From Escherichia coli (GTDB taxonomy: Bacteria; Pseudomonadota; Gammaproteobacteria; Enterobacterales; Enterobacteriaceae): a stretch of DNA of 64,000 bases. Position numbers and translations under genes: made by a program. How positions within the stretch are numbered: the first letter of the stretch is position 1; every line of letters starts with the position of its first letter. Shown here piece after piece: positions 4,978 through 13,000 of this stretch. The notes below the pieces were generated by a model. The model saw nothing but the letters and a program-made list of their open reading frames with translations, did not search any database and was not told the origin of the DNA. The DNA lies in the NCBI RefSeq assembly GCF_030013205.1, contig NZ_CP122648.1; one strand, written 5' to 3'.

Positions 4978-5856
4978 TTACACCAAATTTACAGAGAAGA
5001 TTTCCTCGACCATTGCCCCCGCCAGACGCTGCGCTGAACAGAGTCGTGGCATCCCCAGCGCGACAGTTTGCCAGCGTTGGGTCACTGACCAGCAAACGGG
5101 TTGTTTATCTGCCGTGGTCCACTTTCCCAGCCAACTTAAAAAATCAGCATGATCCCCGCCCGTCGGAATGGTCGAAGAGGCAAACCACTGATGGTAATAG
5201 TGACGCGTGGTCGGTGCCGCATTGATACTCTCTGCCAGATGTTGTGTCGCTTTCTCGCGCAAATCACCCAGCAACAACGCCACCGCTTGCGGGCTTCCCA
5301 GACGGCAGGCATCGCCAAATGCCCCCCAGCGCAACTCCTCCAGAACGATAAAACAGCGCCCAGGCAACGACCAGGCGTTATACGCCCCAGCACGCCAGCG
5401 GGTAAAAATTTGCTCGCTCTGATCACCTGCCTGCACCAGTAGGCCTCGTTGCGTTAACGCCTTTTCCTTCCAGCGACAACGGGCTGAAAACCACTCATAC
5501 AAGGCGGCAATTTGCTGGGGGAGCTCCGGGAAAGCAGAGTGCTGGCGGTGATCCATTTTTTGCAGCAGCGCCAGATGTTGCGCGATCTGCGTCAGCGCCA
5601 GATGACCGGGATCCAGCATCGACGCCAGTTTTTCCACCAATGTCAGACGCAGGCTAAGCGGCGCATTTAACATCCCGCCGTTCGTCCATGCCTGAAGCTG
5701 CACACGCGCAAGAAGTTCCTGCATCAGTCGTTCACGAAACTGCTGCTGATGGGCTTGTGGATGGCGGGCATCATCGCCCTGCGCCAGATCCACTAAAAAG
5801 CGCGGATGAACCGACTCCAGCACGCGACCGGGGCCGTCCAGTAACGTCTTGATCAA
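4978..5856 (-). CDS. yjcZ: Uncharacterized protein YjcZ (292 aa), co-transcribed downstream of crfC
   Basis: 292-aa ORF; start overlaps crfC stop (ATGA-type coupling at 5853-5856). Confidence 0.85.
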   Translation of the reverse strand: MIKTLLDGPGRVLESVHPRFLVDLAQGDDARHPQAHQQQFRERLMQELLARVQLQAWTNGGMLNAPLSLRLTLVEKLASMLDPGHLALTQIAQHLALLQKMDHRQHSAFPELPQQIAALYEWFSARCRWKEKALTQRGLLVQAGDQSEQIFTRWRAGAYNAWSLPGRCFIVLEELRWGAFGDACRLGSPQAVALLLGDLREKATQHLAESINAAPTTRHYYHQWFASSTIPTGGDHADFLSWLGKWTTADKQPVCWSVTQRWQTVALGMPRLCSAQRLAGAMVEEIFSVNLV

Positions 5857-8081
5857 TATCGTTCTGCCGTGAAAAGTGTTTGAATATCATCGCGTAACAG
5901 CTGAGCGTCGATGTAAATCCAGCTGTGAGTCATCACAGCCTGCTGCAATTGCTGCTGCATCAGCCTGACCACCGATTCATTTTGTTGACGCAGAGCCAGG
6001 CTTTCGCGTAAACGCGTCTGTAATTCCGTCAAACATGAAGCGAACTCAGCGAAAAAAGTATTCATGCCTGCCGTAACAGATTCATCGACCTGCTCTGCCA
6101 AAACTTTAGCCATTTGTTGGCAATAAAGATCGACTTCTGCGCTTAATGCTCGTTGCAACACACTGTAATCAACCGTCTCTGTCGGGGATTTCTCATTTCC
6201 CCGTCCCCAGTCGGGCTGATTCAACCAGCGCGAAAAAGTCTCACGCACAACGCCTAAACGCGTGCTCTGCTCGTCCGTTGCTTCCTGGCGCGAAATGACT
6301 TCACTGAACAGCTGGCGAGTGTTGAAGTGGGGAACTGCGCCGTGAAAAACAGGAAAATGAAACCCAGGACGAAACCCTGACTCGCTCAATTCCATTTTGA
6401 TTTGTTGCTCAATGGGGCGAATAACATCGGTTAACACCCGGCAAAGGGTGGATTCCAGCTCGGCAAAACGCAGCGTAAAGTCGCGACTGATGGTGTTCTG
6501 CGCCGTCTGTAACAGTGTCTCACAGCGGGTACGAATCTCGCTTAACGGCTCCGAATCATCCTGAAACAAGGCGGCAAACTGCGCATTCAGCGCATCTTGC
6601 TGTTGACGCAGAAAGTGGTTGGCGGAGGTCAGGGCCAGCTCGATTTCATGTTTAATCTCGCCGCTCACCTGCGCCTGATTGAGTTGCAATAGCTGCAAAC
6701 TTTCTTCGACCTGATGGATATTTTGCCGCAATTGTTCACAAGCGACGTTTAACCCGTGCGCACGAAAATCCAGGTATTCCCGCGCCTGCTGCGCGTAATT
6801 CAACAGTTTATGCACGGCAGATCGCAGAGCATACAACGAGGCGTTAGCGTAAGCGGCATGAAGCAACGCCTGAATTGGCTGGGCGAACAGCGAATCTTCC
6901 CACAACTGATCGGCAGCATGACGAATATGTTCGAGGTCAGCCAGATCGGCATGACGCCAGCGCCTGCCGAGCGCGGCATGGGCAAAATCTTCCACCCAGC
7001 GTTGTTGCTCTGGCGGTGGTAACTTACCGTTGTTGGCTAACTCATGGCGCGCCCGATTCGCCAGGTAGCCCCACATCGACGACACCGGAAATATCTGCTG
7101 TGGCGTAATACAGCCTTTCATCAGCGTCCCGGAAATCAGTGCCCGCACCTGGTCGGCGTCGTCACTGTTACGATCCTGTTGATCGAACTTATTGACCAGC
7201 ACATACAGCGGCACCGATTGCCCCACCGCCAAAATCGCCTCACGGACCTCTTCATCGGAGATCGATTTCAGTTGCGTATAATCCAGCACCGCCAGTACCG
7301 CCGAGGCGCGTGCCAGCTGCTGGTTAAGCATTTTTTGCAGATGCGGTTGCCCGGCTTCATTTGGCCCGGGGGTATCCAGTAACGTCAATTGACCGGGATA
7401 ACTCTCCAGCCCCGCCAGATGGACAAACTCCACTTCAATCACGGGAATATGCTCAATGGCGGCGTAAGCAGAAAAAGGAAAATCGACGTCCAGCGCCTTC
7501 GCCAGTCGCACCAAATCATTCAAACTTTTCAGACAATGAAAAATAGGCTGGGCACCCAGATAATATTTTTCGAAAGCGACGCCATTTTCGATCCGCTGCA
7601 TAAGCGCACGCATATCTTTATCTATTTCCAGCACATCGGTCAGATGCTTAATATCGCAATCACGCAGGCGCTGTTGTAATTTTTGAATTAAACAATCGAT
7701 TGGCGCGACATGTGAAAAATGCAGTACCGGTTCCTTTTGCCCGGGCGTATGGCGAATAAGCGTCGGCAGCGCAGTCATTGGGCGATTACGATTAGGCAAA
7801 ACCTCCGTACCAACAATGGCATTAATGGTGGTTGATTTCCCTGCTTTCATGGTACCGACAATCGCCAGCACCATTTCCAGTCGGGAAATTTTACGCAACT
7901 CATTATTCAGCATCGCGTGACGTTCGGCGATATTAGGCTGACTCCAGGGTAAAGCCAGTTGTGGCGCATCGTCTCCGGGGACAGAGAGAGGCATTTTTTC
8001 CAGTAACTGCAACTGTTGGCGAGAAAGCTGTAACAGGCGTTCAGCCTCCTGACTTAACTCATACAGGGTCTGTGTGTACAT
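5853..8081 (-). CDS. crfC: Dynamin-like GTPase CrfC (YjdA)
   Basis: ORF 5853-8123 minus; P-loop GTPase motif (GTMKAGKSTTINAIVG); true start taken as ATG at 8079-8081 (MYTQTLYELSQ...) giving 742 aa, preceded by AAGGAAG; the track's further 14 codons upstream run into IS1. Confidence 0.9.
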   Translation of the reverse strand: MYTQTLYELSQEAERLLQLSRQQLQLLEKMPLSVPGDDAPQLALPWSQPNIAERHAMLNNELRKISRLEMVLAIVGTMKAGKSTTINAIVGTEVLPNRNRPMTALPTLIRHTPGQKEPVLHFSHVAPIDCLIQKLQQRLRDCDIKHLTDVLEIDKDMRALMQRIENGVAFEKYYLGAQPIFHCLKSLNDLVRLAKALDVDFPFSAYAAIEHIPVIEVEFVHLAGLESYPGQLTLLDTPGPNEAGQPHLQKMLNQQLARASAVLAVLDYTQLKSISDEEVREAILAVGQSVPLYVLVNKFDQQDRNSDDADQVRALISGTLMKGCITPQQIFPVSSMWGYLANRARHELANNGKLPPPEQQRWVEDFAHAALGRRWRHADLADLEHIRHAADQLWEDSLFAQPIQALLHAAYANASLYALRSAVHKLLNYAQQAREYLDFRAHGLNVACEQLRQNIHQVEESLQLLQLNQAQVSGEIKHEIELALTSANHFLRQQQDALNAQFAALFQDDSEPLSEIRTRCETLLQTAQNTISRDFTLRFAELESTLCRVLTDVIRPIEQQIKMELSESGFRPGFHFPVFHGAVPHFNTRQLFSEVISRQEATDEQSTRLGVVRETFSRWLNQPDWGRGNEKSPTETVDYSVLQRALSAEVDLYCQQMAKVLAEQVDESVTAGMNTFFAEFASCLTELQTRLRESLALRQQNESVVRLMQQQLQQAVMTHSWIYIDAQLLRDDIQTLFTAERY

Positions 8082-8164
8082 AGAAAATTCTTCCTTAAAG
8101 CAAATTTTGGGTGATGCTGCCAACTTACTGATTTAGTGTATGATGGTGTTTTTGAGGTGCTCCA

Positions 8165-8440
8165 GTGGCTTCTGTTTCTATCAGCTGTCCCTCCTGTTCA
8201 GCTACTGACGGGGTGGTGCGTAACGGCAAAAGCACCGCCGGACATCAGCGCTATCTCTGCTCTCACTGCCGTAAAACATGGCAACTACAGTTCACTTACG
8301 CCGCCTCTCAGCCCGGTACGCACCAGAAAATCATTGATATGGCCATGAATGGCGTCGGATGTCGCGCCAGTGCACGCATTATTGGCGTTGGCCTCAACAC
8401 GATTTTCCGCCACTTAAAAAACTCAGGCCGCAGTCGGTAA
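8165..8440 (+). CDS. insA: IS1 InsA (transposition inhibitor / N-terminal part of transposase)
   Basis: 91-aa [46 protein letters not shown]... (zinc finger plus HTH), a few substitutions relative to the K-12 IS1 InsA I recall. Confidence 0.92.
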
Positions 8441-8862
8441 CCTCGCGCATACAACCGGGCAGTGATGTGATTGTCTGCGCTGAAATGGACGAACAGTGGG
8501 GCTACGTCGGTGCTAAATCACGTCAGCGCTGGCTGTTTTACGCGTATGACAGGATGCGGAGGACGGTTGTGGCGCACGTCTTCGGTGAACGCACTCTGGC
8601 CACACTGGAGCGTCTTCTGAGCCTGCTGTCGGCCTTTGAGGTCGTGGTATGGATGACGGATGGCTGGCCGCTGTATGAATCACGCCTGAAGGGAAAGCTG
8701 CACGTTATCAGCAAGCGTTATACTCAGCGCATTGAGCGGCATAACCTGAATCTGAGACAACATCTGGCAAGGCTGGGACGGAAGTCACTGTCGTTCTCAA
8801 AATCGGTGGAGCTGCATGACAAGGTCATCGGGCATTATCTGAACATAAAACACTATCAGTAA
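8359..8862 (+). CDS. insB: IS1 InsB reading frame (expressed as InsAB' transposase by -1 frameshift at A6C motif)
   Basis: 167-aa ORF in -1 frame relative to insA; ...WPQHDF...[44 protein letters not shown]...; slippery TTAAAAAACTC at ~8414-8424 inside overlap. Confidence 0.88.
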
Positions 8863-9259
8863 GTTGGAGTCATTACCCAAATTTTGTTACTTTTATTTAG
8901 CCAGATTGTTTTTGAGTTCTGTTTTCGGCTTTTATAATTACTGCAAGAAATAATTTTATATTTAGAGTGTTGTTTTTTATTAGAATAAATAACGTCTTCC
9001 GATACGTTTAAAACGTCAGAAAGATAAAAATATCATTTGAATTAAAAAAAGAACAAGTAGAGCATTAACCTTATCTTAAATAATAAATGGAGGCAAAAAG
9101 ATTATTTTCTTTTTGCGTTTCCTTTCAAATGAAAACGATCGTCGTCTAAAATCAGCAGTACCCCCGACAAACTCAGGGATTTTGTGTATAATTGCGGCCT
9201 TTTTCGGCAATCTGCCGTTTTTTGGCGCTTTTGCCCTGCTGACTTTTGAGGAAATCCAC

Positions 9260-9595
9260 ATGTCATTACCACACTGCCCAAAATGCAACTCCGAATACAC
9301 CTACGAAGATAACGGCATGTACATCTGCCCGGAATGTGCCTACGAATGGAACGACGCAGAACCTGCACAGGAAAGCGACGAGCTGATCGTTAAAGATGCT
9401 AACGGCAATCTGCTGGCTGACGGCGACAGCGTTACCATCATTAAAGATCTGAAGGTGAAAGGTAGCTCTTCGATGCTGAAAATTGGCACCAAAGTGAAAA
9501 ACATCCGCCTGGTTGAAGGCGACCATAACATCGATTGCAAAATCGACGGTTTTGGTCCGATGAAACTGAAATCTGAGTTTGTGAAAAAGAACTGA
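9260..9595 (+). CDS. yjdM: Zinc-ribbon protein YjdM (PhnA)
   Basis: 111-aa protein [30 protein letters not shown]... with GAGG 10 nt upstream of ATG 9260; track ORF 9113-9595 is a 5' extension. Confidence 0.9.
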
Positions 9596-9613
9596 TTGTA
9601 TTGTGATCGGTAA

Positions 9614-12220: not shown

Positions 12221-13000
12221 ATGCAAACCATCACCATCGCCCCACCCAAGCGCAGCTGGTTCTCGCTTCTGAGCTGGGCCATTGTTCTCGCCGTGCTGGT
12301 CGTCTCGTGGCAGGGCGCGGAAATGGCCCCGCTCACGCTGATTAAAGACGGCGGCAACATGGCAACCTTCGCCGCCGACTTCTTCCCGCCCGATTTCAGC
12401 CAGTGGCAGGATTACCTCACCGAAATGGCCGTCACGCTGCAAATCGCCGTCTGGGGCACCGCGCTGGCGGTGGTTCTCTCCATCCCCTTCGGTCTGATGA
12501 GCGCCGAAAACCTGGTGCCGTGGTGGGTTTACCAGCCCGTACGCCGCCTGATGGACGCCTGCCGCGCCATTAACGAAATGGTCTTCGCCATGCTGTTCGT
12601 GGTCGCCGTTGGCCTTGGCCCGTTCGCTGGCGTGCTGGCGCTGTTTATCCACACCACCGGCGTGCTCTCCAAACTGCTTTCCGAAGCGGTAGAAGCAATT
12701 GAACCCGGCCCGGTGGAAGGTATTCGCGCCACCGGTGCCAACAAGCTCGAAGAGATCCTCTACGGCGTGCTGCCGCAGGTGATGCCGCTGCTGATCTCCT
12801 ACTCCCTCTATCGCTTCGAATCCAACGTCCGTTCGGCCACCGTTGTTGGCATGGTCGGCGCTGGCGGGATCGGCGTCACCCTGTGGGAAGCGATTCGCGG
12901 TTTCCAGTTCCAGCAAACCTGCGCCCTGATGGTGCTGATTATCGTCACGGTCAGCCTGCTGGATTTCCTCTCTCAACGGTTGCGTAAGCACTTTATCTGA
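12221..13000 (+). CDS. phnE: Phosphonate ABC transporter permease PhnE (apparently intact)
   Basis: Uninterrupted 259-aa ORF with multiple hydrophobic segments and the permease EAA-like region; no frameshift visible. Confidence 0.9.

Follow-up and report, generated by a model that had tools for sequence, protein, structure and literature searches.

Classical genetics has established that IS1 insertions are strongly polar in both orientations, with the insertions in the gal and lac leaders among the classical cases. IS1 can also switch genes on: in the cases of blaTEM and acrEF, fusion promoters generated by it are on record (Prentki 1986, Goussard 1991 and Olliver 2005, as cited in a review, PMC9330008). 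The gene considered here, crfC (also yjdA or rdcA), encodes a dynamin-like GTPase that also figures in the literature as a clamp-binding nucleoid partition factor (PMC6374313). Under the name RdcA the same protein, together with RdcB (YjcZ), activates DgcE, a diguanylate cyclase that triggers the c-di-GMP/CsgD biofilm cascade at its top level, and loss of RdcA lowers CsgD-dependent curli and cellulose (PMC6510439). The region upstream of crfC is bound by H-NS, crfC mRNA is markedly up in a delta-hns background (PMC6374313), and overproduction of SlyA raises crfC-yjcZ 2.6-fold (PMC5797941). A FliA (sigma-28) site located inside yjdA and driving yjcZ was identified by ChIP-seq and RNA-seq (PMC4183435, with the table in PMC4203485). 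Genomic SELEX also places a FliA site within yjdA (PMC5493296); an earlier predicted FliA promoter upstream of crfC has been judged incorrect (PMC4183435, PMC5493296). We analyzed an IS1 copy lying immediately upstream of crfC in a 64,000-nucleotide stretch of Escherichia coli DNA (contig NZ_CP122648.1), which in its entirety is referred to below as the window.

Structure of the insertion and its empty allele

Direct reading of the sequence, combined with a repeat finder run on 7900-9300, delineated an intact IS1 of 768 bp on the plus strand at 8110-8877. The element and its flanking duplication comprise the following features:

8101-8109: target-site duplication, left copy, CAAATTTTG
8110-8132, plus strand: left inverted repeat (IRL), the crfC-facing end, GGTGATGCTGCCAACTTACTGAT
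8165-8440, plus strand: insA, 91 aa, open; matches the IS1/IS1595 zinc-binding domain NF050000 with 40.9 bits (cutoff 28)
8359-8862, plus strand: insB frame, the catalytic part of InsAB', open; matches NCBIfam NF033558 (transpos_IS1) with 148 bits (cutoff 100)
8416-8422, plus strand: A6C motif for the -1 frameshift that yields the InsAB' transposase
8855-8877, minus strand: right inverted repeat (IRR), GGTAATGACTCCAACTTACTGAT in its inward reading
8878-8886: target-site duplication, right copy, CAAATTTTG

The two inverted repeats are alike at 19 of 23 positions, and the fusion obtained by a -1 shift at the A6C motif is an InsAB' protein of 232 aa with zero internal stops. InsA by itself scores 86 bits against NF033558, which is under the cutoff of 100, as expected for a transposase fragment. 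The element is assigned to IS1 by its length, its inverted repeats, the frameshift in its transposase, the match to the curated model, the target duplication and the identity to reference copies. RefSeq labels the identical sequence in K_EC180 an IS1 family transposase with programmed frameshift, and the PGAP name for the element is solely the generic 'IS1 family transposase'. The orientation of insA is such that its transcription runs away from crfC, with IRL abutting the crfC leader.

The genes and regulatory segments that surround the element are as follows:

4978-5856, minus strand: yjcZ/rdcB
5853-8081, minus strand: crfC/rdcA, dynamin-like GTPase, 742 aa, intact, with its ATG at 8081
6081-6108, minus strand: FliA (sigma-28) promoter within crfC, driving yjcZ/rdcB, with 1 mismatch to the published MG1655 motif
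8082-8100, minus strand: residual crfC leader on the gene side, with the RBS AAGGAAG (8096-8090) untouched
8887-9259: AT-rich crfC-yjdM spacer, moved 777 bp away from crfC
9260-9595, plus strand: yjdM, the divergent neighbor

The left end of the IS1 is 28 bp from the crfC start codon. The crfC product matches the CrfC equivalog NF007368 over residues 1-742 of 742 (1591 bits, cutoff 1146) and has 12 amino-acid differences from MG1655 RdcA in a fully open frame, which fits a recent insertion and equally fits continued use of the gene. The whole crfC-yjdM spacer amounts to 401 bp with 31.7% GC, and its segment beyond the element would be the expected home of both the H-NS-bound native crfC promoter region and the yjdM promoter. 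A promoter-like site for yjdM is seen at 9164-9192, 287 bp from the IS1.

Both copies of CAAATTTTG are perfect over 9 bp and each directly touches one terminus of the element. The repeat finder also returned chance repeats of 9-11 nt elsewhere within the same 1.4 kb, so the 9-mer would be unremarkable on its own, and it is its placement at both IS1 ends that matters; by our own arithmetic the probability of a perfect 9-mer abutting both termini by chance is about 4e-6 to 8e-6. IS1 reportedly favors targets that are rich in AT and have G/C at either end of the duplicated stretch (Zerbib et al. 1985, cited in PMC9330008), and CAAATTTTG is consistent with this pattern. In MG1655, CAAATTTTG occurs once, with no IS1, in a yjdM-rdcA spacer of 400 bp. 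We reconstructed the empty allele in silico by deleting the IS1 along with one copy of CAAATTTTG. The reconstructed allele aligned with MG1655 as a single block of 624 bp at 98.6% identity, and single-piece matches at 100% identity to its 1,424-bp version came from at least 30 other complete E. coli genomes. MG1655 and about 99% of complete E. coli genomes have no IS1 at this site. The matches indicate that the IS1 simply transposed into an allele that was otherwise left unchanged and is still in circulation. That the element is a genuine, lineage-specific IS1 transposition is, in our assessment, practically certain. The initial annotation had described a complete 768-bp element with a flanking 9-bp duplication, situated 28 bp upstream of the crfC ATG with an intact RBS, separating crfC from the AT-rich region (the whole spacer does lie beyond the IS1) and absent from K-12 MG1655, and had proposed alignment to the empty site as a check; the results above bear out this description in each of these respects.

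Distribution of the insertion and recurrent IS1 targeting of the spacer

A 140-nt probe spanning the left junction was searched against 5,426 complete E. coli genomes, and an uninterrupted 100% match was recovered in exactly 14 of them. All 14 carriers come from pigs or wild boar, namely K_EC180, the O139:H1 strains W13-16 and P15-25, and 'ETEC'-labelled strains, and all are 100% identical to the window over 7400-9600 (2.2 kb). The window itself equals the K_EC180 chromosome except for one indel in 50 kb, with coinciding RefSeq feature coordinates. The insertion is specific to one swine-associated sublineage (swine ETEC/O139:H1) and not to one strain. The initial annotation had called it strain-specific; the absence from K-12 stands, and the identical junction in 14 swine ETEC/O139:H1 genomes replaces the restriction to a single strain with 'lineage-specific'. 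The insertion is already annotated by RefSeq in these 14 genomes and is a routine IS polymorphism, useful as a clade marker for the sublineage.

The remainder of the window is ordinary core genome, running from eptA to uvrA. No tRNA genes were found in the window, and an Rfam search of 7800-9400 returned no known RNA families. The phnE gene at 12221-13000 is annotated as intact in this lineage and is a pseudogene in MG1655. In the human isolate 51489 (NZ_CM135151.1), whose flanks match the window at 100% identity, an IS1 occupies a different position in the crfC/yjdM region and crfC bears a split annotation; this counts as a further independent hit on that allele.

With junction probes for either orientation we recovered IS1 in the crfC-yjdM spacer with IRL toward crfC in 27 genomes and with IRR toward crfC in 8 genomes. 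We mapped the IS1 ends in 17 representative genomes and numbered each insertion by the distance from the crfC ATG upstream to the outer edge of its duplication. This resolved at least 15 independent events in the spacer at 13 positions, with +68 and +69 counted separately, and in both orientations:

+9, minus orientation: spacer IS1
+13, minus orientation: spacer IS1
+28, plus orientation: the window's own IS1
+68/+69, both orientations: hot spot, target CTGTTTTCG
+111, plus orientation: spacer IS1 with an odd 51-bp duplication, starting at +61
+138, minus orientation: spacer IS1
+161, minus orientation: spacer IS1
+228, plus orientation: spacer IS1
+237, plus orientation: spacer IS1
+263, minus orientation: spacer IS1
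+264, plus orientation: spacer IS1
+290, plus orientation: spacer IS1

IS1 is known to prefer AT-rich DNA, and the recurrent targeting of this spacer fits that habit. We also considered an orientation bias, as might arise from selection for an outward promoter, given the 27 against 8 genomes; when counted by independent mapped events the split is about 8 to 7, and hence there is no orientation bias.

The hot spot CTGTTTTCG corresponds to 8919-8927 of the window, or +61 to +69 upstream of crfC, and received 5 or 6 independent hits, in both orientations, within the same 8-9 bp. The isoforms found there are IS1A, IS1B and IS1F-like (loci L004, L005, L007, L011, L019 and L020). It overlaps GCCGAAAA, which resembles a sigma-28 -10 element but is without a matching -35. 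In E. coli M15 an IS5 is nested inside the hot-spot IS1 (L005:1251-3084). In E. coli EC488 (NZ_CP109874.1, L003:1294-2061) the spacer IS1 is flanked by a direct duplication of 51 bp, from +61 to +111, rather than of 8-9 bp, and this duplication begins exactly at the +61 hot spot.

Further genomes carry an IS1 inside crfC, or IS1-adjacent deletions that remove part of crfC, one of them including the start codon. XYEH3314 (L013) has an IS1-adjacent deletion from -159 to +2, which takes the crfC start and constitutes a natural crfC null allele, and five more genomes resemble it by coverage, span and annotation. GmF046 (L010) has a deletion extending from adiA into crfC, likewise a natural crfC null allele. 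One laboratory evolution experiment also produced a crfC nonsense allele (PMC4759930), showing that loss of crfC is tolerated. The repeated targeting of crfC and its spacer, whether by way of a hot spot or of selection, is the sole mildly interesting angle of this locus. That the repeated hits in and near crfC have been partly selected to turn down RdcA-dependent activation of DgcE strikes us as quite doubtful; if it were so, natural lineages, including the swine ETEC/oedema-disease clade, would have shifted away from a curli/cellulose matrix.

A mosaic isoform of IS1

By ISfinder practice a nucleotide identity of more than 90% to reference copies defines an isoform of IS1. The full-length comparisons were as follows:

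K-12 IS1A: 93.4% identity, 51 differences
K-12 IS1F: 96.0% identity, 31 differences
Copy annotated as IS1X2 family: 96.4% identity, 28 differences

With 93.4% identity to IS1A and 96.0% to IS1F, the element is an isoform of IS1 by this measure. It shares with the K-12 IS1A/IS1B, IS1F and IS1X2-type copies the length of 768 bp, the insA-A6C-insB layout and the 9-bp target duplication, and its IRL is identical to that of K-12 IS1A. Unlike K-12 IS1A and IS1F, it is a mosaic: its bases 1-177 show 0 differences from K-12 IS1A, and the remaining 591 nt show 13 differences from IS1F and 51 from IS1A. An IS1A-identical beginning joined to an IS1F-like remainder marks it as a recombinant isoform, and this pattern suggests a past recombination between IS1 isoforms. 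The initial annotation had spoken of a distinct isoform with 'several' differences from the K-12 IS1; the distinctness holds, in the form of this mosaic, and 'several' understates the 51 differences from IS1A and 31 from IS1F.

A copy with at least 99% identity was the best match in only 150 of 9,595 IS1-containing records, and among the 30 such matches listed all were 100% identical and all belonged to swine strains, on both chromosomes and plasmids. Identical copies of the element also occur elsewhere in the carrier chromosomes and on plasmids of the same or related swine strains, which fits a recently active element. The sequence comparisons thereby indicate that the isoform is probably active in transposition, and the identical plasmid copies are a possible source of the insertion.

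Predicted consequences for crfC and yjcZ, and comparison with other IS insertions

As for the effect on crfC, we propose that an intact IS1 recently transposed into the 5' leader/promoter region of the gene in an ancestor of the swine ETEC/O139:H1 sublineage and that the 9-bp target CAAATTTTG was duplicated in the process. The AT-rich promoter region bound by H-NS, like everything else that lies beyond the first 28 bp upstream of the ATG, is shifted by 777 bp, and a native transcript would have to traverse 768 nt of untranslated antisense IS1 to reach crfC. Uncoupling from the promoter, along with IS1 polarity, would then strongly lower the expression of crfC/RdcA, whereas transcription of yjcZ/rdcB would continue from its own FliA promoter inside crfC. 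Judged from the sequence, we favor this account as a whole, including the silencing, with moderate confidence, and regard lowered crfC expression as the likeliest outcome.

Several observations bear on the transcription of crfC across the element. Given that just 28 bp are left on the gene side, no complete promoter is present there. We found no mapped position for the native crfC transcription start in the sources consulted, and the SMRT-Cappable-seq supplements do not contain crfC. A consensus scan of 8060-8860 detected no sigma-70-like minus-strand promoter facing crfC, and a relaxed minus-strand scan of 8060-8900 yielded no candidate near the left end of the IS1. Between 8400 and 8800 a transcript of the minus strand would be rich in C and poor in G, and read-through would further encounter a weak terminator-like hairpin at 8250-8236 on that strand. 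A weak read-through, or a non-consensus promoter inside the IS1, is a possible source of crfC transcripts.

We also sought a sigma-28 promoter upstream of crfC. The best match of a consensus scan in the spacer agreed at 10 of 16 positions and had a poor -10, and GCCGAAAA, at +64 to +71, was rejected as a sigma-28 -10 for want of an acceptable -35 at 11-nt spacing. This weak scan, taken with the published location of the FliA site inside yjdA, led us to drop the idea that the IS1 separates crfC from a FliA promoter. The internal FliA promoter is present at 6081-6108, and hence yjcZ/rdcB should stay expressed whatever crfC does. This runs counter to the initial annotation, which had treated the crfC-yjcZ operon as affected as a unit. 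As a separate observation, the intragenic promoter reads TAAAGTTT here and TAAAGTTC in MG1655, and the one change makes its -35 element a perfect consensus in this lineage.

An effectively neutral insertion, hitch-hiking in a clonal swine lineage with crfC maintained by read-through from the displaced promoter or from elsewhere, appears unlikely from the sequence at hand. The initial annotation had offered abolished expression or a hybrid or outward IS1 promoter; to these must be added, as a third possibility, that the displaced native promoter reads through the element. Such neutrality would be in keeping with the intact state of both crfC and yjcZ and with the complete identity of the 2.2-kb region across 14 of 14 carriers; moreover, the AT preference of IS1 and the many spacer hits in both orientations make selection unnecessary as an explanation. 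Nevertheless, the read-through that it invokes must cross the 768 nt of untranslated antisense IS1, an element whose polarity is classically strong, and the natural alleles that destroy crfC (by IS1 in the coding sequence, or by the IS1-adjacent deletions, one including the start codon) indicate that loss of the gene is at least tolerated.

Activation or derepression of crfC by the IS1, through a broken H-NS complex, a hybrid promoter that combines a -35 from IRL with a -10 from the flank, or an outward promoter, seems still less probable on sequence grounds. The binding of H-NS upstream of crfC, its derepression in delta-hns and upon SlyA overproduction (PMC6374313, PMC5797941), and the fusion promoters of blaTEM and acrEF cited above lend it some plausibility, as does an outward -35-like TTGGCA in IRL, 8 nt from the tip. 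The hexamers that follow at 16, 17 and 18 nt, namely GCTTTA, CTTTAA and TTTAAG, all lack the A at position 2 and the T at position 6 of a -10 element, so that, for want of a functional -10 at this spacing, the sequence does not qualify as an IS-generated hybrid promoter. A start driven by TTTAAG would land within or past the RBS, leaving a leader of about 5 nt; the minus strand of 8060-8860 offers no consensus-like promoter as a substitute, and relief from H-NS would be of no use once the promoter itself sits 777 bp further away. Finally, an assembly artefact has a negligible chance of being the explanation. Multi-copy repeats are prone to being misplaced by the assembler, and each carrier chromosome has 12-22 places that match IS1; the artefact is nonetheless rejected, since 14 independently assembled complete genomes agree on identical junctions in a single alignment piece and a perfect 9-bp duplication abuts both ends.

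Returning to the favored account of a crfC gene uncoupled by the insertion, the polymorphism is real, was correctly described and is unremarkable, and what it offers is a naturally occurring allele whose crfC/rdcA is probably cut off from its promoter and whose rdcB retains its own. RdcA-dependent signaling through DgcE may be affected downstream. Given that RdcA and RdcB activate DgcE (PMC6510439), the allele could have an effect on motility or on matrix production in these strains, and a lineage with lowered crfC might make less matrix.

The locus can be compared with two groups of known insertions. Like the activating IS1/IS5 insertions at bgl, blaTEM and acrEF, the present one lies in AT-rich, H-NS-bound DNA immediately upstream of a gene and has an outward -35-like hexamer in its inverted repeat. 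In contrast to them, it is without a usable -10 at the right spacing, and the IS1 is located between the native promoter region and the RBS instead of upstream of the promoter. It recalls the classical polar IS1 insertions in the gal and lac leaders in that the IS1 is situated between promoter and coding sequence, and lowered downstream expression is expected in both, for crfC as a prediction. It differs from them in that the second gene, yjcZ, has an internal FliA promoter (PMC4183435), and polarity would therefore not reach yjcZ in the usual way.
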